A stretch of DNA of 64,000 bases from Promethearchaeota archaeon (GCA_019058445.1 JAHPZA010000006.1:1-64000); one strand, 5' to 3'. Counted from the stretch's first letter, positions 25,721 to 43,462 are shown. Translations and numbers: made by a program. Notes: generated from the letters alone by a model not told the origin.

Positions 25721-25737
25721 TGAAAGAGATGTTTCAC
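25721..25737 (+). repeat. attL core TGAAAGAGATGTTTCAC
   Basis: Identical to 43355-43371. Confidence 0.93.
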
Positions 25738-25764
25738 TATAAGATTAGGGATCGAATCGATACC

Positions 25765-25773
25765 TTTAAATAG
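25765..25773 (+). promoter_or_regulatory. TATA-like box TTTAAATAG of the integrase operon
   Basis: About 50 bp upstream of first viral ORF; same 9-mer at 28394 and 32377. Confidence 0.5.
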
Positions 25774-27571: not shown

Positions 27572-27910
27572 TAATTTTTTTACCCTATTTTTATACTATT
27601 TTATTAAATATTTTCCTGATTTTTATATTTTTGTCATTATTTTTAGCTTCTCGATGTATTCTATGAAGAGCTTAAGCGATATTTTTTTTCCATTTTTCTC
27701 CATTTCGATTTAAACTATCTTAAATGGAGATGATAAGATATTTTCTAGCGAAAAAGCGACATGTTTATCCGTATATTTCGCTTGATTCCTCTTATCCTGT
27801 GGGGAGATGTGGTTAATTTTTTGCGGAAAAGTTAAAATTACGTTATGTTTGATCGTACATATCCGTGAGGAGATATGTACAGGCGTACATATCGATAATA
27901 AACCTAATAG

Positions 27911-28205
27911 AGTCGCAGAATCTGCAACCCTAAAAAAAGATTCTAAACCCAAAGTCGACAAGGGAAAGTAAAGTAATATTTGATCCCAATCAATTTACTT
28001 TCTTGATTGCTTCTGTGTCTATTTTAGGTTTGACAGATTCTGTCTCTCCTAAACTCCAACTTGAGTATGTGCCTTTACTGTTGACTCCGACACCCCGAAT
28101 TTCTTAGCTGTCGCTTTAGTAAAGCGTTCAGCGGGTTTATCTACTTTCTTGATTGCTTCCTTGTCGATTTTAGGTTTATTTTCCCGTTTCGCAGATTCTG
28201 CGACT
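27911..28205. pseudogene. Rearranged fragments of a ParB-like HTH gene with three palindromic boxes
   Basis: VAESA..KPK(I/V)D cassette in three copies (one +, two -); FTKATAKKFGVSESTV HTH-like; 15-bp inverted repeat 27911-27925/28191-28205. Confidence 0.45.
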
Positions 28206-28393
28206 TGGGAAAATATAAAAATTTTTTGAGTGACAAAAATCTTTTCGCGTGACATATTTATCTCGCGTGACATTAACCAAATTGCAGAATAGTTTGAGGA
28301 AAAAAGCGAAATCGAAACATTTTTATAGTTACTTTGACTAGTATATGGTGAAGTATTACTAAATAATAAAAAGTAAAAAAAACCATGCAAGGT

Positions 28394-28402
28394 TTTAAAT
28401 AG
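28394..28402 (+). promoter_or_regulatory. TATA-like box of the RHH-TFB operon
   Basis: GCAAGGT-TTTAAATAG about 40 bp before ATG 28443. Confidence 0.55.
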
Positions 28403-28442
28403 ACTTTTTTTTTTATTTTTACTAGGTAAAAATTAGTAAAAA

Positions 28443-28574
28443 ATGAAATTATTGAATTTTAAAGTAACGGAAAAAATATACAAACAACTAAAAGAGTATA
28501 TAGAAAAACGTGGGCAAACCAAATCCGCAATTCTAAGAGAAGCTTTATTCGAATACTTAGAGAAGAATAGATAA
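28443..28574 (+). CDS. CopG-like ribbon-helix-helix protein (43 aa, not in ORF track)
   Basis: MKLLNFKVTEKIYKQLKEYIEKRGQTKSAILREALFEYL. Confidence 0.8.
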   Translation: MKLLNFKVTEKIYKQLKEYIEKRGQTKSAILREALFEYLEKNR

Positions 28575-28580
28575 GCTTCA

Positions 28581-29390
28581 ATGCATTGCGACGAATGTTC
28601 GGGCGCTATTAATTATATCGGAATCTGTGAAGAATGCGGATTAATTGATAACGAAATCCATAAAGAAAGTATGCTAGATTTAGATCCTATGAGTTTTAAT
28701 AAGAATGGTGAGCTTAAGAAAGATCATGGAATTTTTTATAAATCTAATATTCCGTGTATAGCAGTTACAACAAAAGTAAGTAGAAAAAACGCTAACAATT
28801 CCGATTTATTTAGAGCTTTAAAATGGGATGGAAATTACAAATGGGATATACAAAAATTCATGATTTTTAAAAAAGAAATTGAGTATATTTGCGAAAATTT
28901 AAACATAAAAAACGATTTGAAGTTTACAATCTTAGATATGGGAAAACGGATTTTGGGAAATCTAATCTTATCTGGGAAAAGGATTGAAGATATGGCGGGA
29001 GCAATTGTTTATTTGACGGCTAGAATTGAAGAATTGCCTATATTGATTGATGATCTTAAAGATTTAGAATACAAAAATACTTATCGTTATTACGTTTTCT
29101 TAGTTAAAAAAATGGGATATTTTAACATATTAAAAAACCCAAATCTGAGAAGATTTTTATATCGGTTTATAGTAGAATTAGAATTAAGTGAAAAAGTTGC
29201 GTTAGAATGTCTGAAAACGCTATTAAAATTAAAGCAAATTTCCGCGAAAATAAATATCAAATCTGCAAGTGTTATTTACTATGTTTGTAAAAAAAACGGA
29301 ATTAATATAACTCAAAATAAGATTTCCGAAGTTTGTAAATGTAGTGTGGTGCAAATGAGGGAAATAATAAAAATATTGAATAAAAAATGA
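28581..29390 (+). CDS. Virus-encoded TFB/TFIIB homologue
   Basis: CDEC..CEECG Zn ribbon; GKRIEDMAGAIVYLTAR and ASVIYYVC..ITQNKISEVCKCSVVQMR cyclin repeats. Confidence 0.85.
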   Translation: MHCDECSGAINYIGICEECGLIDNEIHKESMLDLDPMSFNKNGELKKDHGIFYKSNIPCIAVTTKVSRKNANNSDLFRALKWDGNYKWDIQKFMIFKKEIEYICENLNIKNDLKFTILDMGKRILGNLILSGKRIEDMAGAIVYLTARIEELPILIDDLKDLEYKNTYRYYVFLVKKMGYFNILKNPNLRRFLYRFIVELELSEKVALECLKTLLKLKQISAKINIKSASVIYYVCKKNGINITQNKISEVCKCSVVQMREIIKILNKK

Positions 29391-29553: not shown

Positions 29554-29811
29554 ATGAAAGAATTGAATAAAGTTAAACTTATAGAAAAAATTGAGATGGG
29601 AATAGGCGTGAAGAATGGGGATATAGAACACTGTTTAAACGACGATAATATGTTTGATATAACAAGTAGAATTAAGGAAAATGAACATAATTGTAATCCC
29701 CTTTATATTACTATTCCTTTCTCTTTTCTCCTAAAGCGTTTTAACCTTAGAAGGAAAAATCGAGAATTAAAAATAGGTTTAGGGTTAAAAGTAACATATA
29801 AAGAGGATTAA
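29554..29811 (+). CDS. Viral hypothetical protein
   Basis: Co-oriented ORF in tightly packed operon. Confidence 0.6.
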   Translation: MKELNKVKLIEKIEMGIGVKNGDIEHCLNDDNMFDITSRIKENEHNCNPLYITIPFSFLLKRFNLRRKNRELKIGLGLKVTYKED

Positions 29812-29835
29812 ACATCCTCTATTTTTTTTTCAAAA

Positions 29836-30150
29836 ATGCCAGAGTTAAAAGAAATGCCAGAAATTATAAGATCTCAGAGATTAATAACCTATGATAATAA
29901 AAAAGTATGGGCGACGGAAAGTGTTTGTATGGATGTTAAATTTAATGGAGTGGAAAATTATTTCACGATAGATAATGCCCAGTCAGAAGCTACTAAGAAA
30001 ATCAATGGGATTTTGGATGAGCTAGATAAATTGATTGAGAAGATATATTTCGCGGGAAAATTTTATGGTGCAAATATGTTAAATTGCAAGGTTAAGATCG
30101 CCAAAATTAAAGAATTGTTGCCTGTTACGATAAAAGATGACGGAAGATAA
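29836..30150 (+). CDS. Viral hypothetical protein
   Basis: Co-oriented ORF in operon. Confidence 0.6.
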   Translation: MPELKEMPEIIRSQRLITYDNKKVWATESVCMDVKFNGVENYFTIDNAQSEATKKINGILDELDKLIEKIYFAGKFYGANMLNCKVKIAKIKELLPVTIKDDGR

Positions 30151-30571
30151 ATCAACATTAGAAATTACTAAATTTCCGCAGACTAAAAAGAATGATAGTA
30201 TAGATGCATTAGGAATGGAAATAAAACAATTGAAGGGAAATTTGATGGAAATTGAAAATTTGAAAAACGATTTAAAAATCATAAAACGATTATTCTATTT
30301 GATGATCTCATATAAAGAATTCAGAAATAACGAATTTCTTTATTTGATTCAAGATTTATTAATAGATAACAATGTAAGAAATGATAAAACCTACAAGAAT
30401 CATCTAATAGAAGTAAACCTAGATCAATTAAGGAAAGCAATTAAGAAGATTGAAGATTTTAAGGAGATAGAAGATTTAGGACCTCATGAAGTAGGATTAA
30501 AAATTCTAAGAGAAAATGAAACCCTAAAAGATCATATTAATTGGATGATTAGGGAAAATGACGGAGATTAA
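30137..30571 (+). CDS. Viral coiled-coil hypothetical protein
   Basis: Overlaps both neighbours; heptad-like pattern. Confidence 0.6.
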   Translation: MTEDKSTLEITKFPQTKKNDSIDALGMEIKQLKGNLMEIENLKNDLKIIKRLFYLMISYKEFRNNEFLYLIQDLLIDNNVRNDKTYKNHLIEVNLDQLRKAIKKIEDFKEIEDLGPHEVGLKILRENETLKDHINWMIRENDGD

Positions 30572-30953
30572 AGATATACCTTTTGACATTGAAAATTTGA
30601 ATCTCTTAGAGTTAATTGGAGGGAAGACAGCAGATCTCTCCAGATTTTTAGGAGTGAATGGAGACATTGTTTTTATTACGTGTATCTGGGACGGGTTAAC
30701 CAATTTTTATACCCGAATAGCAGATTATGATCAAGCTTTACAAGAAAAGGAATTAACAAGAAAACAACATTTTGTTAAAATTTGGAAATTAAAGAATGAA
30801 ATGTTAAACATGTTTTCCTCAATTTGCGACACGATATCAACTGTTCCAGAGTTTAATGAAATGATTGACGACGATACAAAAAGCAGTATAAAGAAATGGC
30901 GTGAAGCGTATAAGAGCTTTATTGAAAATACAGAAAAAGTAGTTAAGGAATAA
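30558..30953 (+). CDS. Viral hypothetical protein
   Basis: Overlapping co-oriented ORF. Confidence 0.6.
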   Translation: MTEIKDIPFDIENLNLLELIGGKTADLSRFLGVNGDIVFITCIWDGLTNFYTRIADYDQALQEKELTRKQHFVKIWKLKNEMLNMFSSICDTISTVPEFNEMIDDDTKSSIKKWREAYKSFIENTEKVVKE

Positions 30954-30991
30954 ATTAAATTCCTTTATTTTTTTTATTGTAGTGAGAAAAA

Positions 30992-31234
30992 ATGATGCAA
31001 AATATAAATTTAGAAAAAGATTTTAAGGGAGTTTATTATGAGGCATCTTCTAATAATACTTCTTATAATGACGCGATAAATTCCCTTATTTCTAAAATAA
31101 TGCAAACACTTAAAAACTCTATTGATCCTAAAGAGAAAAAAGCATCGATTGGATTGTTTGGGAATATAATAACAACCTTATCTATAAAGGATCAAGATTT
31201 TAAAGAAATAGAAATATTTGGAAGTATTAGATAA
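30992..31234 (+). CDS. Viral hypothetical protein
   Basis: Co-oriented ORF. Confidence 0.55.
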   Translation: MMQNINLEKDFKGVYYEASSNNTSYNDAINSLISKIMQTLKNSIDPKEKKASIGLFGNIITTLSIKDQDFKEIEIFGSIR

Positions 31235-31265
31235 ATAACTAAAAAAGAACGGGTAAGTGAAATTT

Positions 31266-31415
31266 ATGAAATTATGGTTTAGTGCGAATATATTGAATCG
31301 AATAAACAATATAAAACATAAGAATGAGACAGTAACGCAATTTATTAAAAGGGCTGTTGAGTATTATGTTTTGGAATGTGAACGTGAATATAATGAAAAT
31401 AAAAAAGACACCTGA
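31266..31415 (+). CDS. Small RHH-like protein (49 aa, not in ORF track)
   Basis: MKLWFS..ETVTQFIKRAVEYY. Confidence 0.55.
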   Translation: MKLWFSANILNRINNIKHKNETVTQFIKRAVEYYVLECEREYNENKKDT

Positions 31416-31731
31416 AGAGAATTATTATAAAAAACGCACAGAGTATATCCGTTTATTCATAATTGAGGATAAAAAAATAAATGAAATATCGGAAATTACG
31501 GGAGATTCAAAATCGAGGGCAAGGTATTTAATTTATAGTAAATGGGATTTAAAGAAAAAAGGAAATCCATTATATTTGATGTATAAGAATAGGAGAGAGG
31601 AAACGGATAAACGGAAAATTGAGAGATTACTTGAAGATGGGAAAACAAGAAAGGAGATTTATTCGAAGTTTAAAGAAAATTACAAAACTTTTTTGTCTTA
31701 TTGTAAGCGTTTAGGAGTTAGGGGAGACTGA
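31393..31731 (+). CDS. Basic double-HTH-like protein adjoining origin-like repeats
   Basis: KKINEISEITGDSKSRARY and GKTRKEIY..YCKRLGV; ATG at 31393. Confidence 0.55.
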   Translation: MKIKKTPEENYYKKRTEYIRLFIIEDKKINEISEITGDSKSRARYLIYSKWDLKKKGNPLYLMYKNRREETDKRKIERLLEDGKTRKEIYSKFKENYKTFLSYCKRLGVRGD

Positions 31732-32210
31732 TTTTTGTCACATCGCGATCTCTTAGGAAATTGAAGAGACTGATTTTTGTCACATCATTTTCACTTTTTT
31801 CCTAAAACTAAAAATGGTTTTTTTGATCGAATTTGGTATTTAGGAGTTTTGAAGTCTTCATAAAATAATGAAGAGGAAAAATCGTCACATGATTTTTGCG
31901 GGAAAAATGTGGGAAAAAGTGGGGAAATGAAATATTTGACGAGATGGGGTTGTCTAAACAAAAATTATGAAAATTTAGTTTCTAGGAAAAAATGAAACTT
32001 ATAATATATAATATATAACTTTCATATTTATCTAGAAACTAAAATTATAAGTAGAGGCGTTTTAAAGCTATTTTAGAATTTTGGGTAAGGTTTACGTGGG
32101 AAAAATGTGGGAAAAAGTGGGTTAGTTTTCGGTTTTTAGTGAAATGAATGTGACATTTTTCAGTCTTCTGTATTCTGTTAAATCTCTAAGCGATCTAATA
32201 GCCAAATTTA
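31724..32210. repeat. Origin-like region: iteron pair, G-rich direct repeats, central AT-rich palindrome
   Basis: 21-bp repeats 31724-31744/31766-31786; 24-bp repeats 31900-31923/32098-32121; inverted arms 31974-31985/32032-32043. Confidence 0.7.
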
Positions 32211-32376
32211 AATTGAAAAAATGGTTTAATTTTTAAAATCCATAAATGATGGGAAGAACGGGTTTAGGGTATTTTTTTGGACACTTCGACTTATTTTAAT
32301 CATAAAAAAGCCTGTTTTCTCCCATCATTTTATTATTTTTCCGTAATGAGATGACTGAAAAGCGGGATTGGTAAGT

Positions 32377-34014: not shown

Positions 34015-35505
34015 ATGAGTACTAGACAAGTCCAAATCTTCAAGGTCTTAGAGGAAAACCCAGAATTAGCGGAACGTAGTTCAAATGCCGAACTTTACGC
34101 CTTATTACCTAAAGTTCCTAAAAGTTCTATCCGTTTTAACAAAAAGCTATTTAAGGAACGTCTAAAACGCAAAAACGAGGAGTTACAGCTCTTCATAGAA
34201 AACAACCAGAAGTTCATACAACCGCCCACACAGAACGCTTACAAATGGCAAATTGACGCGTTTAACAAGATCATGGAGCATTTCGCTACTAAGCTTCTTG
34301 TACCGCGAGATCACGGTAAATCCTACTTAATCTGTTGGTTAATCGAATACTTATTAGATTTGAAGGCTACAAGCGTTCTTTTACTAGGTTGGACAGATCG
34401 GCGAAAAGATATCGCAGAATGGGTTTATAGTTATTGTATTCGCAAGGATTTAATAGAATCCGTTAGAAGCGAATTTTGGTTTACACTTAAGAACGGCTCT
34501 AAATTCCGTTGTTTTCTTACTTCGGAAAAGGCTATTCTAGGCTTCCACGGGGACGAGAAGGGTATGGTTCTTATCATAGATGATCCTATTGACGATTCTT
34601 GGCGCACAGAACCGTGGAGAGAAGCCAAGCTCGAACGTCGCTATAAATCAACGATTTCAAACATAAATCCGTTAAAGATACTAATTAGCGGAACGCGGAA
34701 ATGTGAAGGTGACTTTTTCGATTTCATAGATGATACGTACGGAAATAGTGATTACGATTATTATGATTACACACGTAAGCCATACTATGAGGAGAACGGT
34801 TCTAAAAAGCTTCTATGCCCAGAGAGATGGACACTAGCTAAATTAGAGAAGAAACGCGTAGAAATAGGAGAATATTGGTATGCAGCGGAATGGATGCAAG
34901 ATCCTCATCCCATAGAGGCAGGGATCTTAACTAAACCGACGTTTGACATACACGCGGGTAAATCTGCTTATTCACATTGCGCAATAAGCGTGGATTCCGC
35001 TACAACGATAAAGAAAACGTCAGACTTTACTGCAATCATTACAATCTTAAAGAAGCGAAACACTTTAGAGTATTTTGTACTCAGGGCTTTAGTAGATCAT
35101 TTAGATTTCGAGGAAATTCTAAAATCGATAGAGAAGGCTTATAGATATGTTTTAGAGAAGTTTATAGATATCAATATAATTGTTCCAATTGAGAAAAATG
35201 CGGGAGGAAATTATTTAATTCAATCATCTAAGAGACGTGGTTATACATTTAGTTCACACATCATTCCTGTTCATAGTAGTAAAGCCAAATTCATTAGAAT
35301 TGAATCCGCATTAGAAGTACCGTTAAGAGAAGCTACACTTATATTTTCTGAAGGTTTAAAAAATACAGAATTAATAACGGAAATTCTAACATTCCCAAAT
35401 AGCCGTAAACTCGACGCGATAGATGGATTAGCCATAGGAATAAAAGAACTTGAAAATAAACATTCAGCATATACATTTGATATATTAAAAGCAAATGCAT
35501 TTTAA
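34015..35505 (+). CDS. Terminase large subunit
   Basis: VPRDHGKS Walker A, LIIDDP Walker B, ISGT, WMQDP, SVDSA..SDFTA, DAIDG nuclease acids. Confidence 0.92.
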   Translation: MSTRQVQIFKVLEENPELAERSSNAELYALLPKVPKSSIRFNKKLFKERLKRKNEELQLFIENNQKFIQPPTQNAYKWQIDAFNKIMEHFATKLLVPRDHGKSYLICWLIEYLLDLKATSVLLLGWTDRRKDIAEWVYSYCIRKDLIESVRSEFWFTLKNGSKFRCFLTSEKAILGFHGDEKGMVLIIDDPIDDSWRTEPWREAKLERRYKSTISNINPLKILISGTRKCEGDFFDFIDDTYGNSDYDYYDYTRKPYYEENGSKKLLCPERWTLAKLEKKRVEIGEYWYAAEWMQDPHPIEAGILTKPTFDIHAGKSAYSHCAISVDSATTIKKTSDFTAIITILKKRNTLEYFVLRALVDHLDFEEILKSIEKAYRYVLEKFIDINIIVPIEKNAGGNYLIQSSKRRGYTFSSHIIPVHSSKAKFIRIESALEVPLREATLIFSEGLKNTELITEILTFPNSRKLDAIDGLAIGIKELENKHSAYTFDILKANAF

Positions 35506-35507
35506 AA

Positions 35508-35915
35508 ATGAAATTAAAAAATATTATTAATAAAATTAAGACTGGATATAAACGCTTTAGAGAGTACTTCTATAAAGGAGAAGTGGTGTTTATGACTAAT
35601 GATAAAGCCCATTTAGAGGCAATTTATACAAGTTTATCCGTTTTAGGAATAGATATTAAATATATAGGTAATAATGAATATATGTTTAAAATCTCCGCAA
35701 AAAAGGAAAAACATTATAAAAAGCTTGTAAATACAATTCTGGAAGATAAGGAGAGTTTAAAAGAGAAGTCTATGCGTTTATTTGATAAAGAACTTAAAAT
35801 AAAAGAATTAAATGAAAAATTAGCTTTTCTTAAAGGATTATTTGAATCAGAAAAAGCTATTATTTTTGAAGAGAATTTCAATGAAGATATGAAGGCTAAA
35901 TTAGATGCAATATAA
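35508..35915 (+). CDS. Viral coiled-coil protein between TerL and portal
   Basis: Co-oriented, K/E-rich helix. Confidence 0.6.
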   Translation: MKLKNIINKIKTGYKRFREYFYKGEVVFMTNDKAHLEAIYTSLSVLGIDIKYIGNNEYMFKISAKKEKHYKKLVNTILEDKESLKEKSMRLFDKELKIKELNEKLAFLKGLFESEKAIIFEENFNEDMKAKLDAI

Positions 35916-37077
35916 AACAGTAAATAGAGGCAGTTTTGATCGGTATTATGAAAACCAATATGCACCTAGTTTACTAAAAGATTATTATACTTCCGTAAAT
36001 GACGCAGAAACTAGGGAAAAGAGATCGGGGATTGATCCTTTAGCTTCAGCATTAACTTTACGTGTCGGAAAGCTTTTAACCATGAATCCCCCTAAATTCT
36101 TGGATGAGAATAAAGAAGAGATCAAGAAAATAAGAGAAGAATGGGTTAAAAATGATTATGATAGCGTTTTCCGTGAAGCGATAATAAGTACACGTACTCA
36201 TGGGTTTTGCGTGACAGAAAAACTGAAAAATTCTTTCGCGGGGAAAAACTTTTTAGTACATAATCTGGCGAATGGAATTATACGTGTAAATTATGAAGAT
36301 CGTTTGAATATAAAGAGTTATGATATTCTCCCAAAAATGGAAGAAGGCGAGAGGATTTCGAGTTATGCTATTCCAAAACAACGTGAATTAATGGGAAAAA
36401 ATGCTTTTCACTATGAAATAGGAAGGAAAAAATATAACCAACAAGGCGAGAGTTCTTTAAAACCAATTTGGGCCCAATTAGTACGCGCAAATGAGATAAT
36501 TGACAGTATGGCGGAATATGACTCGCGTATCGGTAAGGGCTGGCTATATGTTAAAGTAGATCCCGCATTATATAATAAAGATATTTCAAAACTTAATACT
36601 GTCGTGCGAAAAATGAATCGTCGACGTTTTATGATTCTAAAAAGTACAAAAGAATCGCCCACGGATATTAATTTATTAACAACGACTAGCACGATTGATT
36701 TTTCTAGAGATCTAGAAACTTTAGTGGGTATTATAGCTTCACAGACTGGATTGCCTACTCGGTGGTTTCTTGGTTCACCAAAAGGATTCATTTCTTCCGC
36801 AAAAGAAGATAGATATCAAGTTTATGCAACTTTAAAAAGTATATTTGCGGAATATAAAGACTGGATTAGGGGATTTATTGAGAAATTCTATGAAAGTGGA
36901 GAAGCTATAAACAATAAGATTAAAGAAATTGAATTTGACGACGAAGGCGTTTTAGAAGAAATAGGAAGACAAATGGAAAACGGTGTAGCTTTTGATAACA
37001 ATCAAATACAAGAATCAGGTAAAACTGAGAAACAAATTAAATATTTAGCTAATAAAGAACAATTAAAGGAGAGCTAA
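35905..37077 (+). CDS. Portal protein (DUF1073-like)
   Basis: Position after TerL; GESSL and IASQTGLPTRWFLGSPKG..ED..Y resemble DUF1073 portals. Confidence 0.8.
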   Translation: MQYKTVNRGSFDRYYENQYAPSLLKDYYTSVNDAETREKRSGIDPLASALTLRVGKLLTMNPPKFLDENKEEIKKIREEWVKNDYDSVFREAIISTRTHGFCVTEKLKNSFAGKNFLVHNLANGIIRVNYEDRLNIKSYDILPKMEEGERISSYAIPKQRELMGKNAFHYEIGRKKYNQQGESSLKPIWAQLVRANEIIDSMAEYDSRIGKGWLYVKVDPALYNKDISKLNTVVRKMNRRRFMILKSTKESPTDINLLTTTSTIDFSRDLETLVGIIASQTGLPTRWFLGSPKGFISSAKEDRYQVYATLKSIFAEYKDWIRGFIEKFYESGEAINNKIKEIEFDDEGVLEEIGRQMENGVAFDNNQIQESGKTEKQIKYLANKEQLKES

Positions 37078-38648: not shown

Positions 38649-39566
38649 ATGGTAAGATTAACAAGGCAAGAACTTAAAAGTATCGATGACATCGTTAAAC
38701 GTGTTCTTCGTGAGCCTCCAATCTTAGAGGCTTTCGGCATTAGACAAGTTGCTAATGGTAAAAGAGAACATATGTTTTTAAGCGCGTCAGATATGCCCAC
38801 ATCTAATATTGGTGCAGATTTCTCTTATGATGCTAGGAACTACCCTATGAGAATCCCTACTGGAACAAAACTAACATTTATAACCTTTCCTGTTCAAATT
38901 AAAAGAACGGATATTGATGCAAGCGAAAGTGCGGGAATTGAATCTCTCGCCGTAACGGCTGAAATTGAAGCAAACGCAGCAATAATGAAGGATGTTGAGG
39001 ATGTTGTTCTTCATGGCAATAATGCTCGCGGATCTAAAGGTATGTGCAATTATGATGGTTTAAATCATTATGGTGCAGATGCTAGTAAAGCCTTAACAAC
39101 TCATGGGAGTTTTTTTACCCAGTTGGAAGGGGCTATCTCACAGGTTCGCGAAAATCATATTAAACCCGGATCAGAAGGCTACGATCTAATAATTAGTCCT
39201 GGGATTTTTCCCGAATTAAGGAATAATTGGGTTACTGGGATTTATAATGAGTATAAGCAATTTAAGGAAACCTATACTGAAGGTCCAGCTCCAGTTATCG
39301 GTAATATTATCGAGACTGACGAGATCTGCACGGACAGTAATGGGAACGCTACAGGTTGCTTCACAGATACCCAAGGTTTCATTGTCGGGAAATTAGGACA
39401 GCCAAATAATTACATCGCTGAATCGTACGAACTTCACCGCGATTTGATTCCAGGAGAATTTGAAAGTGATGTAAATTATGCGCTACGTTGGGCTGGCGGA
39501 TTTATTCCGAAAGAACCGAAGGCTTTATGCTTAGTCACTGGGTTAACGACAACCACAGCATATTAA
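38649..39566 (+). CDS. Major capsid protein, HK97 fold (encapsulin/DUF2184-like)
   Basis: 305 aa, strong SD AAGGTGA, VEDVVLHGNNARGSKGMCN, YDLIISP, C-terminal PKAL. Confidence 0.82.
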   Translation: MVRLTRQELKSIDDIVKRVLREPPILEAFGIRQVANGKREHMFLSASDMPTSNIGADFSYDARNYPMRIPTGTKLTFITFPVQIKRTDIDASESAGIESLAVTAEIEANAAIMKDVEDVVLHGNNARGSKGMCNYDGLNHYGADASKALTTHGSFFTQLEGAISQVRENHIKPGSEGYDLIISPGIFPELRNNWVTGIYNEYKQFKETYTEGPAPVIGNIIETDEICTDSNGNATGCFTDTQGFIVGKLGQPNNYIAESYELHRDLIPGEFESDVNYALRWAGGFIPKEPKALCLVTGLTTTTAY

Positions 39567-40637: not shown

Positions 40638-41504
40638 ATGGCAAAAATATATGCAATTCACTTAGGGTGGGTGTTAGTAGAATCTTATAATGTAGGTGAT
40701 TTAGGTGACAACGACGGTGCGCGAGGAATTTGTAATGACGGAACATTTTTTTACGTTGTTGATTATAATGGTTCAGCAGTATACAAATATCCTTCAGATT
40801 TTAGTTCATTAACGGATTCATATGATATAGGAGCATTGGGTGACAATGATAATCCTTGGGATATTTGTTGGGATGGAACTTATTTTTATGTCACTGATTT
40901 TATAGATGCAAAAGTCTATAAATATAATTCTGACTTCAGTACATTAGAAGACACTATTGATATAGGAGCATTGGGTGGTAATGACGAACCGTATGGTATT
41001 TGTTGGGATGGAACAAACTTCTTCATTACAGATTATGGGGAAGCGTACGTTTATAAATATCCTTCAGATTTTAGTTCATTAGAAGCAAGTTATGATATTG
41101 GCGCATTAGGTGGGAATGACGCACCTATGGGAATTGATTGGGATGGATCTGATTTTTATATATCTGACTATCAAGACGCTAAGGTTTATAAATACCCTTC
41201 AGACTTCTCAGAATTAACTACAAGTTTTAATTTAGCTAACTTAGGTGATAATACGCAACCAATGTGTATGTGTTGGGATGGCACATATTATTATGTAATT
41301 GAATATAAAGATACTGTTTATAAATATGCAGGGGAAATATTAGATATAACCTCCGATGTCAGCTACTGTAAAATCATCACAGAAGTCCGCCAAGTTCCTA
41401 AAGCTATTATAAAGGTACGAAATCAACCATTTGAAGCAGATGATCTCATTCGAATTGTCGGTAATTATACATCATTCAAAAACTGTATAAGGCATGGTAG
41501 TTAA
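40638..41504 (+). CDS. Beta-propeller repeat protein, possible receptor-binding protein
   Basis: Five ~43-aa repeats YDIGALGxNDxPxGICWDGTxFY..VYKYPSDFS. Confidence 0.75.
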   Translation: MAKIYAIHLGWVLVESYNVGDLGDNDGARGICNDGTFFYVVDYNGSAVYKYPSDFSSLTDSYDIGALGDNDNPWDICWDGTYFYVTDFIDAKVYKYNSDFSTLEDTIDIGALGGNDEPYGICWDGTNFFITDYGEAYVYKYPSDFSSLEASYDIGALGGNDAPMGIDWDGSDFYISDYQDAKVYKYPSDFSELTTSFNLANLGDNTQPMCMCWDGTYYYVIEYKDTVYKYAGEILDITSDVSYCKIITEVRQVPKAIIKVRNQPFEADDLIRIVGNYTSFKNCIRHGS

Positions 41505-42183
41505 AAGAATTAGAAAAACTATTCTAAGTAAATGGGTAAATAAGCTTAACTTAAATAATATTCCAATTGAGTTTATTTATACAAACAATAATACATTTGA
41601 AAATGGTTTATGTAGTTATGATTTTAACGCAAAAAAGTATAGGATATTTATAACTCCAAATTCTGATAAAGAAACCTATATTCACGAACTAGGGCATATT
41701 TACTTCGATAAATTGACTAATGCTTTAAACTACTATCAAAAAAACCCTTTTAAGAATATTTATATTAGAAATAGCATTGAGGACGGTTTTGTTAATTATA
41801 ACCTAAGTAAATTTAATGAGTTTTATGATCTTATTAATGAAAATATAGGAAGATCAAAACCAATTAATTATTTGATCAAGAGTTTTAGTTTAAATAGACT
41901 TTTAGGTGGTTATATTTATGATTATCTTCATTGGAACTTCATATTAAAACCAAAAGATCGAAATTTACAAAAAGAAATAATCGATTATAATCTCAATATT
42001 TACCAAAAAGCTATACTCATAAGAGCAAAACAAGAAAAGATTAAATTCAATCAAAAAGACTTATTCAAATTAAGAATAATCTTAAATCAATTTCCTAAAA
42101 TTAAAGATCTTAGAGATTATAAGATCTTAAAAAAGTATGAAGATCAGGTTTTAGAAAAATTTGAAAAAATAAGAGATATTTAA
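41494..42183 (+). CDS. HExxH metallopeptidase-like protein (ImmA/IrrE-like)
   Basis: YIHELGH plus downstream IEDxxVN. Confidence 0.7.
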   Translation: MVVKRIRKTILSKWVNKLNLNNIPIEFIYTNNNTFENGLCSYDFNAKKYRIFITPNSDKETYIHELGHIYFDKLTNALNYYQKNPFKNIYIRNSIEDGFVNYNLSKFNEFYDLINENIGRSKPINYLIKSFSLNRLLGGYIYDYLHWNFILKPKDRNLQKEIIDYNLNIYQKAILIRAKQEKIKFNQKDLFKLRIILNQFPKIKDLRDYKILKKYEDQVLEKFEKIRDI

Positions 42184-43354: not shown

Positions 43355-43371
43355 TGAAAGAGATGTTTCAC
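43355..43371 (+). repeat. attR core TGAAAGAGATGTTTCAC
   Basis: Identical to 25721-25737. Confidence 0.93.
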
Positions 43372-43462
43372 GATCTTACCGACAAAGCTTTTCAAAGTTT
43401 AAAATTTAAAGAGAATTTTTAGTTAACTTTTAAAAATTAAGAGTATAATAGAAGCTTTTTCT

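Follow-up and report, generated by a model that had tools for sequence, protein, structure and literature searches.

A diverged TFB homologue encoded by an integrated head-tailed provirus of a Promethearchaeota archaeon

What might a virus of an Asgard archaeon do with a general transcription initiation factor of its own, in a host that already encodes about a dozen of them? According to PMC5569661, no archaeal virus is known to supply an RNA polymerase of its own, and little is therefore known about the viral capture of the host's eukaryote-like transcription machinery. TFB homologues have been annotated in the Asgard WyrdV1, 10H_0 and 7H_42-like elements (bioRxiv 10.1101/2021.07.29.453957), in JinchiV1 and the baiyanviruses (PMC13700489), and also in the Methanophagales virus PBV300 and some rudiviruses, while the verdandivirus paper describes Asgard tailed viruses of ~20 kb that encode no transcription proteins. 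We found no functional characterisation of any viral TFB in the literature, though homologues are listed in several archaeal virus genomes. Here we analyse a TFB-like gene, vTFB, in a 64,000-nucleotide stretch of a Promethearchaeota genome (GCA_019058445.1 JAHPZA010000006.1:1-64000), referred to as the window throughout; the positions of all features are collected in Table 1.

The first-pass annotation of this DNA had taken the gene for a virus-encoded TFB/TFIIB homologue, and the assignment to the TFB/TFIIB family is secure. The protein matches the TFIIB repeat PF00382 in two stretches (E 1.2e-12) with 48 bits, well above the Pfam cut-off of 23.6 bits and far below the ~150 bits of cellular TFBs. 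Its best sequence match in the PDB is the Pyrococcus TFB core (1ais_B/1d3u_B, E 1.5e-5, residues 113-266). An AF2 model, for which a 64-row alignment served as input, has a mean pLDDT of 90.6 and a pTM of 0.77 and places ten helices in residues 88-268, arranged as two repeats of the expected cyclin fold. In Foldseek searches with this model the TFIIB chains from Pol II pre-initiation complexes rank first, and the core superimposes on 1d3u_B with a TM score of 0.81 and an rmsd of 2.0 Å over 186 columns. Among the viral structures of BFVD the top matches are giant-virus TFIIBs and the TFB of rudivirus SSRV1. The TFIIB-like factors of the Nucleocytoviricota combine a diverged viral TFIIB fold with a length similar to that of vTFB; they share only 14-17% identity with it, and those viruses bring their own RNA polymerase. 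The same Nucleocytoviricota proteins, the top structural match in BFVD, are also the nearest neighbours of vTFB among the protein-language-model feature clusters of the Atlas, a likeness which may simply reflect the divergence common to viral TFIIBs.

The roles of the individual TFB domains (ribbon, reader, linker, cyclin repeats and HTH) are set out in a review (PMC7289017). Like cellular archaeal TFBs, represented by the Pyrococcus structures 1AIS and 1D3U and by the host paralogues, vTFB presents a Cys4 ribbon, a linker, two cyclin repeats and an HTH in this order, but it lacks the N-terminal leader and the RAF motif, has a shortened ribbon spacer and is encoded by a provirus. The zinc ribbon had been predicted from the start, and its four cysteines (C3, C6, C16 and C19) are indeed modelled with a pLDDT of ~91 within an N-terminal stretch of 20 residues that is of high confidence overall. 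It is a minimal version of the domain: the spacer between the cysteine pairs counts only 9 residues against 14-15 in the five host TFBs with a recognisable ribbon, and the zinc-ribbon family PF08271, which the host TFBs pass, does not match vTFB even at E 1. In an alignment with the host TFBs and the related sequences described below, no RAF or RAY motif of the B-reader helix, which is of the E-W-R-A-F type, follows the ribbon, and residues 30-60 are modelled at a pLDDT of 52-70. The canonical host TFB has the RAF motif, as do other cellular TFBs, but in its strict form it is missing from several cellular TFBs of our set too, including two from the host. Downstream of the reader, the segment IAVTTKV ... 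SDLFRALKWD aligns with PDMGLSTVI ... NPDLKRAAKW of the host paralogues, a B-linker-like likeness at the level of sequence conservation only; the NPDLKRAAKW-type motif is common to one group of host paralogues. The description of this region as a short and diverged reader/linker therefore holds in part: the reader is diverged, the linker keeps its motif, and the shortness is borne out only in one comparison, since the inter-domain stretch of 69 residues equals that of the nearest host paralogues (68-69) and is 9 residues shorter than in the canonical host TFB (78). Most of what vTFB lacks in length is due to the absent leader, to the shortened ribbon and to a cyclin core that is compact (181 residues against 191-200). 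In the C-terminal HTH, Q245, V257 and R260 are invariant across the related sequences, and V257 and R260 align with the Val and Arg of the TFB/TFIIB recognition helix in Pyrococcus. Judging from V283 and R286 of human TFIIB, these two residues are candidate BRE contacts. The positions beside the invariant residues differ, the recognition helix reading SVVQMREII in vTFB and SEVTLRxYI in the consensus of its relatives.

The window as a whole is a piece of archaeal chromosome, as shown by genes for PCNA, primase, EF1A, aIF2-alpha, AglB, RpoA', ATCase and NrdD; the EF1A shares 97% identity with that of a Promethearchaeota MAG. The virus is inserted between the genes for a phosphorylase and for ATCase. 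Its limits are given by a 20-nt direct repeat with an exact part of 17 nt (TGAAAGAGATGTTTCAC). In a genome of the same genus (G003) the sequences corresponding to the two flanks (92% identity on the left, 83% on the right) are joined directly, their overlap being precisely this att core. The insertion therefore measures 17,634 bp, and both its attL and its attR are defined. No tRNA or other RNA gene that could have served as the integration target lies in the 64-kb window. Together with the empty site and the att sites, the integrase, large terminase subunit, portal and HK97-type capsid genes identify the element as an integrated provirus of a temperate, head-tailed member of the Caudoviricetes, which bears out the earlier view that the TFB is virus-encoded.

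Table 1. Coordinates of the provirus, its candidate control regions and the parts of vTFB, counted from the first nucleotide of the window.
Feature	Position	Strand	Basis or remark
attL core	25721..25740	+	17 nt exact, 18/20 identical to attR; internal dyad TGAAA..TTTCA
TATA-like box P1 (TTTAAATAG)	25765..25773	+	ahead of leftmost operon: 70-aa ORF, RHH+wHTH gene, integrase
NikA-like RHH + weak wHTH DNA-binding protein, 162 aa	26181..26669	+	PF21983 E 1.3e-9
Tyrosine integrase, 301 aa	26666..27571	+	PF00589 E 5.8e-20
Repeat-dense region of 870 bp between integrase and RHH-TFB operon, without supported gene	27572..28442	.	repeat analysis
TATA-like box P2	28394..28402	+	41-49 nt upstream of RHH start codon
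CopG-type ribbon-helix-helix (RHH) protein, 43 aa, first gene of operon	28443..28574	+	PF01402 E 2.6e-8
vTFB ORF, 269 aa	28581..29390	+	ATG start
vTFB residues 1-22, minimal Cys4 Zn ribbon C-x2-C-x9-C-x2-C	28581..28646	+	four Cys, model
vTFB residues 23-87, diverged B-reader, then B-linker-like motif	28647..28841	+	alignment, pLDDT profile, lengths
vTFB residues 88-178, first cyclin repeat	28842..29114	+	PF00382 stretch 97-161; model helices 88-178
vTFB residues 189-269 and stop, second cyclin repeat with C-terminal HTH	29145..29390	+	PF00382, structure matches
Cys4 zinc-ribbon protein, 50 aa	29387..29539	+	only weak Zn-ribbon family matches; start overlaps vTFB stop by 4 nt
Seven small same-strand ORFs without family, rest of putative early operon	29554..31731	+	ORF calls, family search
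Non-coding, repeat-rich, origin-like region	31732..32376	.	GGGAAAAATGTGGGAAAAAGTGGG twice (31893, 32091); TGTCACAT boxes; AT-rich palindrome
TATA-like box P3	32377..32385	+	ahead of morphogenesis genes
Terminase large subunit	34015..35505	+	phrog_38 E 2.4e-39; PF17289 E 9e-4; distant TerL matches in phage records
Portal protein	35905..37077	+	PF06381 E 1.4e-5, below Pfam cut-off; 40% identical to G214 provirus portal
HK97-like major capsid protein, weak matches	38649..39566	+	PF04454 E 1e-4; phrog_264 E 4.9e-4; G214 homologue
attR core	43355..43374	+	direct repeat; empty site in G003

The family matches of the portal and capsid genes are weak, and both genes are conserved in a second provirus, a distant relative from the same morphogenetic lineage (G214:C28, ~133000-149000; portal 40%, capsid 30% identity), which has its own integrase and terminase genes and longer tail genes than the element in the window. 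This second provirus contains no TFB gene, so within the virus lineage the TFB is an accessory, dispensable gene. Pattern searches of IMG/VR with the capsid and the terminase gave no match, nor did the capsid find one among the phage records. The structural module further includes an ORF of 288 aa (40638-41504) with four tandem repeats of 135 nt (45 aa) at 40779-41216, which may encode a tail fibre or adhesin.

As the first-pass annotation had stated, vTFB lies in an operon behind an RHH gene, from whose end its start codon is separated by 6 nt. The gene follows straight after the integrase module and precedes the origin-like region and the structural genes; from this position the RHH-TFB operon, the first to run rightward, is probably expressed early. 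Two stretches devoid of supported genes flank the operon. The upstream one, in which two minus-strand ORFs match no family, carries a 39-bp near-palindrome (28177-28215), and two copies of TCGCGTGACAT spaced 18 nt apart (28245 and 28263). A direct repeat of 39 nt (27993/28139) is also found there, and the P2 TATA box is bracketed by an inverted repeat (28355-28382/28406-28433). The region has the look of a lysis-lysogeny switch that contains operators, and P2 is by its location presumably the promoter of the RHH-TFB operon. The downstream stretch, with its repeated motifs and palindrome, resembles a replication origin.

Where does the viral factor come from? The host genome (G000; 4.6 Mb on 10 contigs) encodes ~12 full-length TFB paralogues, one of them an ORF of 508 aa, and three TBP genes. 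This expansion of basal factors is large for an Asgard genome (examples are C7:28873-29775, which is the canonical TFB, C6:1263325-1264218 and C4:14572-15090). The first-pass annotation had named two findings that would count against its reading. One of them, a fold other than the cyclin type, is at odds with the model described above, and the other, a recent and unselected copy of a host gene, is rejected. The best identity between vTFB and any host TFB is 28-29% (the nearest is G000 C6:1263325-1264218), and in a careful maximum-likelihood tree vTFB and 18 metagenomic TFBs form one group with a support of 100/100, parted by a long branch from all cellular TFBs; a quick tree of 62 rows gives the same grouping with a support of 96. 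Within the clade vTFB is sister to the other members (99/96) and the most diverged of them, with an end branch of 1.5. An exhaustive search of 1.84 billion representative proteins returned 120 matches to vTFB, the best with 34% identity (E 8e-27); the highest identity among the 120 is 37%, barring one fragment of 108 aa (41% over 86 residues). A word-index search found only vTFB itself, and the species-representative genomes, IMG/VR and the GenBank phage records hold no close relative.

Two features of the N-terminal region accompany this phylogenetic separation. Of the 18 clade sequences with a recognisable ribbon, vTFB included, 17 have a ribbon spacer of 8-9 residues, compared with 13-15 in cellular TFBs, and the RAF reader motif is found in none of the 18 clade members and not in vTFB. 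The short spacer and the loss of RAF are shared derived characters and lend the clade independent support. When 400 Asgard genomes were searched with a clade profile built without vTFB, vTFB scored best (152.6 bits), and the next matches, at no more than 127.7 bits, were cellular TFBs solely from the host's own family. These share the linker motif NPDL(K/R)RA.KW, which hints at the lineage from which vTFB was derived. The dN/dS between clade members is 0.09-0.14, and the clade is thus under purifying selection.

The surroundings of eight clade members were examined. All lie on short, tightly packed contigs with the genes on the same strand, no cellular marker genes were seen on these eight contigs, and the contigs resemble mobile elements. 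For several clade members the source is a sediment metagenome (Ga0114923 and Ga0209976; JGI) that has also yielded published Asgard mobile elements, of the 7H_42-like kind. A recurring order comprises an ATP-dependent DNA ligase gene, sometimes a Zn-ribbon gene, the TFB and ParB_N (contigs L020, L022, L024 and L138), and its recurrence suggests a conserved module of a larger mobile element or virus of the Asgard type. Genes on other clade contigs encode GP88, an RFC-like ATPase, a radical-SAM protein, a pentapeptide-repeat protein and an N6/N4 methylase into which a LAGLIDADG domain is inserted. The ligase-TFB-ParB_N order is missing from the window, where the neighbours of vTFB are the RHH and Zn-ribbon genes, and the provirus has no gene beyond the TFB in common with the six clade contigs compared. 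On L138 (7978-10110) a 710-aa N6/N4 DNA methylase consists of two Pfam stretches split by a LAGLIDADG-like domain, perhaps an intein or else an inserted homing endonuclease.

How much of this is new? That Asgard viruses and mobile elements carry TFBs is already known from annotations, and the published elements share with ours a virus- or element-borne TFB, a comparison drawn from their published descriptions. JinchiV1 is head-tailed and has an integrase, like the provirus in the window, but it measures 33.5 kb and belongs to the Kariarchaeaceae, whereas the provirus in the window spans 17.6 kb, comes from another Asgard lineage and was found in the integrated state, between exact att sites. 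Rudivirus SSRV1 likewise has a full-length TFB-like protein (~270 aa), its putative transcription initiation factor B, which ranks second among the BFVD structure matches (E 1.3e-6) and has 18% identity to vTFB, but rudiviruses belong to the realm Adnaviria and infect other hosts; in the collection of phage and archaeal-virus records vTFB has no sequence-level match. New are the exact integrated state of a TFB-bearing provirus in the lineage of its host, the delineation of a clade of short-ribbon, reader-less TFBs on mobile-element-like contigs, and the demonstration that vTFB represents an old, selected lineage and was not picked up from the host. The case offers a temperate provirus whose limits in an Asgard genome are clear-cut, a circumscribed family in which ~20 related TFBs, all element-borne, evolve under purifying selection, and a specific anatomy that lends itself to testing: a mini-ribbon, no B-reader helix, and a linker and HTH that are kept. 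At present this amounts to a solid annotation and a useful comparative frame and not to a new mechanism.

In our preferred reading, which we hold to be about evenly poised between right and wrong, vTFB is a virus-borne, diverged TFB that acts as an alternative general initiation factor on TBP-bound promoters. The two cyclin repeats and the C-terminal HTH would seat the protein on TBP-bent promoter DNA, and contact with the host RNA polymerase would be made by the minimal Cys4 ribbon and the B-linker-like segment that is kept; viral transcription could then proceed independently of the ~12 host TFB paralogues, or out-compete them. Binding to TBP, DNA and RNA polymerase, early expression and any promoter preference are inferences that belong to this reading. 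A complex prediction for the vTFB core (residues 85-269) with a host TBP returned a score of 0.01 (mark 0.32) and weighs neither way. Should vTFB initiate without a canonical B-reader, it would offer insight into start-site selection by TFB and TFIIB.

Several findings weigh against this reading. vTFB is the most diverged member of its clade, with a recognition helix that departs from the consensus, and the G214 provirus does without a TFB. The loss of the B-reader motif and the shortening of the ribbon mean that RNA polymerase recruitment or start-site selection could be impaired, and they keep two other readings alive, of a decoy and of a co-activator. As a dominant-negative decoy, vTFB would occupy TBP-promoter complexes or the docking site on RNA polymerase without supporting open complex formation or start-site selection, and host transcription would be shut down or skewed. 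RAF is lost throughout the clade, the ribbon falls below the PF08271 cut-off, and the intact cyclin core and HTH make promoter binding plausible; precedent comes from the global RNA polymerase repressors of archaeal viruses, exemplified by ATV RIP (PMC5123050). Against this, the B-linker-like motif and the four cysteines are maintained by purifying selection, which exceeds what a simple DNA-bound blocker would need, and the strict RAF motif is dispensed with by several cellular TFBs, two host ones among them. A decoy that blocks promoters would moreover hit the virus itself, since the proviral promoters use the host's consensus TATA box. We consider the decoy unlikely; a vTFB that did block transcription would represent a novel form of viral host shut-off. 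A working initiation-type factor is favoured over a mere blocker because the Cys4 ribbon, linker, cyclin repeats and HTH are all kept under purifying selection.

The promoters bear on a further, more ambitious version of the initiation-factor reading. The first-pass annotation had spoken of the promoters with the box TTTAAATAG, and to take these as something viral finds no support. No 8-mer is more strongly enriched upstream of host genes than TTTAAATA (225 occurrences against 47.5 expected), so the TTTAAATAG boxes agree with the TATA box that the host itself prefers and do not define a viral promoter class. The window contains eight copies of TTTAAATAG where 4.4 are expected, a difference that is not significant, and the provirus four where the genome density predicts 0.99; the fourth proviral copy (41889-41897) sits within the last plus-strand gene (41494-42183), with no obvious gene after it. 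In an unbiased comparison of flanking sequences, one of the six pairs of proviral sites is more alike than the genome-wide background, namely P2 and P3, whose flanks match at 14 of 24 positions and fall into the top 0.5% of genome-wide pairs; the host positions corresponding to the BRE are AT-rich. The regular expression (AG|GT)TTTAAATAG.C.TTT, a pattern defined post hoc, matched only three sites in 4.6 Mb, all of them proviral.

It is conceivable, if improbable, that the short-ribbon, reader-less TFBs are a class of dedicated initiation factors of viruses and mobile elements, with RNA polymerase contacts unlike those of cellular TFB and with cognate element promoters that they drive, here P2 and P3. 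As such they could be likened to an archaeal counterpart of the phage sigma factors. The likeness to T4 gp55 and SPO1 gp28, which are virus-borne factors for promoter recognition and polymerase recruitment encoded among early genes, is a functional analogy only: sigma factors have no homology to vTFB, and the analysis brought no cognate class of viral promoters to light. The TATA boxes of the provirus follow the consensus of the host and no robust virus-specific promoter element was found; nothing thus points to a separate promoter class that vTFB could read, which counts against the initiation-factor reading.

Sulfolobus TFB3 is a truncated protein without the DNA-binding core, and Pyrococcus TFB2 lacks the B-finger. 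Both have an altered or missing B-reader region and yet act in transcription, and the reader of vTFB is likewise altered. A trans-acting co-activator of the TFB3 kind would bind RNA polymerase or the TBP-TFB-DNA complex and stimulate transcription without replacing the host TFB; TFB3 itself activates together with TFB but cannot take its place (PMC7289017). With its missing reader and short ribbon vTFB recalls such reduced paralogues, but unlike TFB3 it is virus-encoded and has retained the two cyclin repeats and the HTH, all modelled with high confidence. Its architecture is not reduced in the manner of TFB3, and we regard a co-activator role as distinctly improbable.

The neighbourhood of the clade members raises the thought that the TFIIB fold could have been exapted for DNA replication or segregation, as in Orc6. 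Several of them adjoin the genes for DNA ligase, ParB_N or RFC-like proteins, published Asgard mobile elements pair a TFB with PCNA (bioRxiv 10.1101/2021.07.29.453957), and in the window the vTFB gene lies upstream of the origin-like repeat region. vTFB also has a weak match to the second cyclin domain of ORC6 (E 0.039), but this is far below the cut-off, and a host TFB behaves similarly. Since the conserved ribbon, linker motif and HTH residues are parts specific to transcription, and no synteny with replication genes is seen in the window, such a use has very little to recommend it. Least credible of all is a decaying or neutral passenger gene of host origin that has no function: the very long branch of vTFB and the absence of a TFB from the related provirus would fit, but the reading frame is intact and tightly embedded in its operon down to the overlap with the next gene, the fold is predicted with high confidence, no close host donor exists, and conservation extends over the whole clade at a dN/dS of ~0.1.
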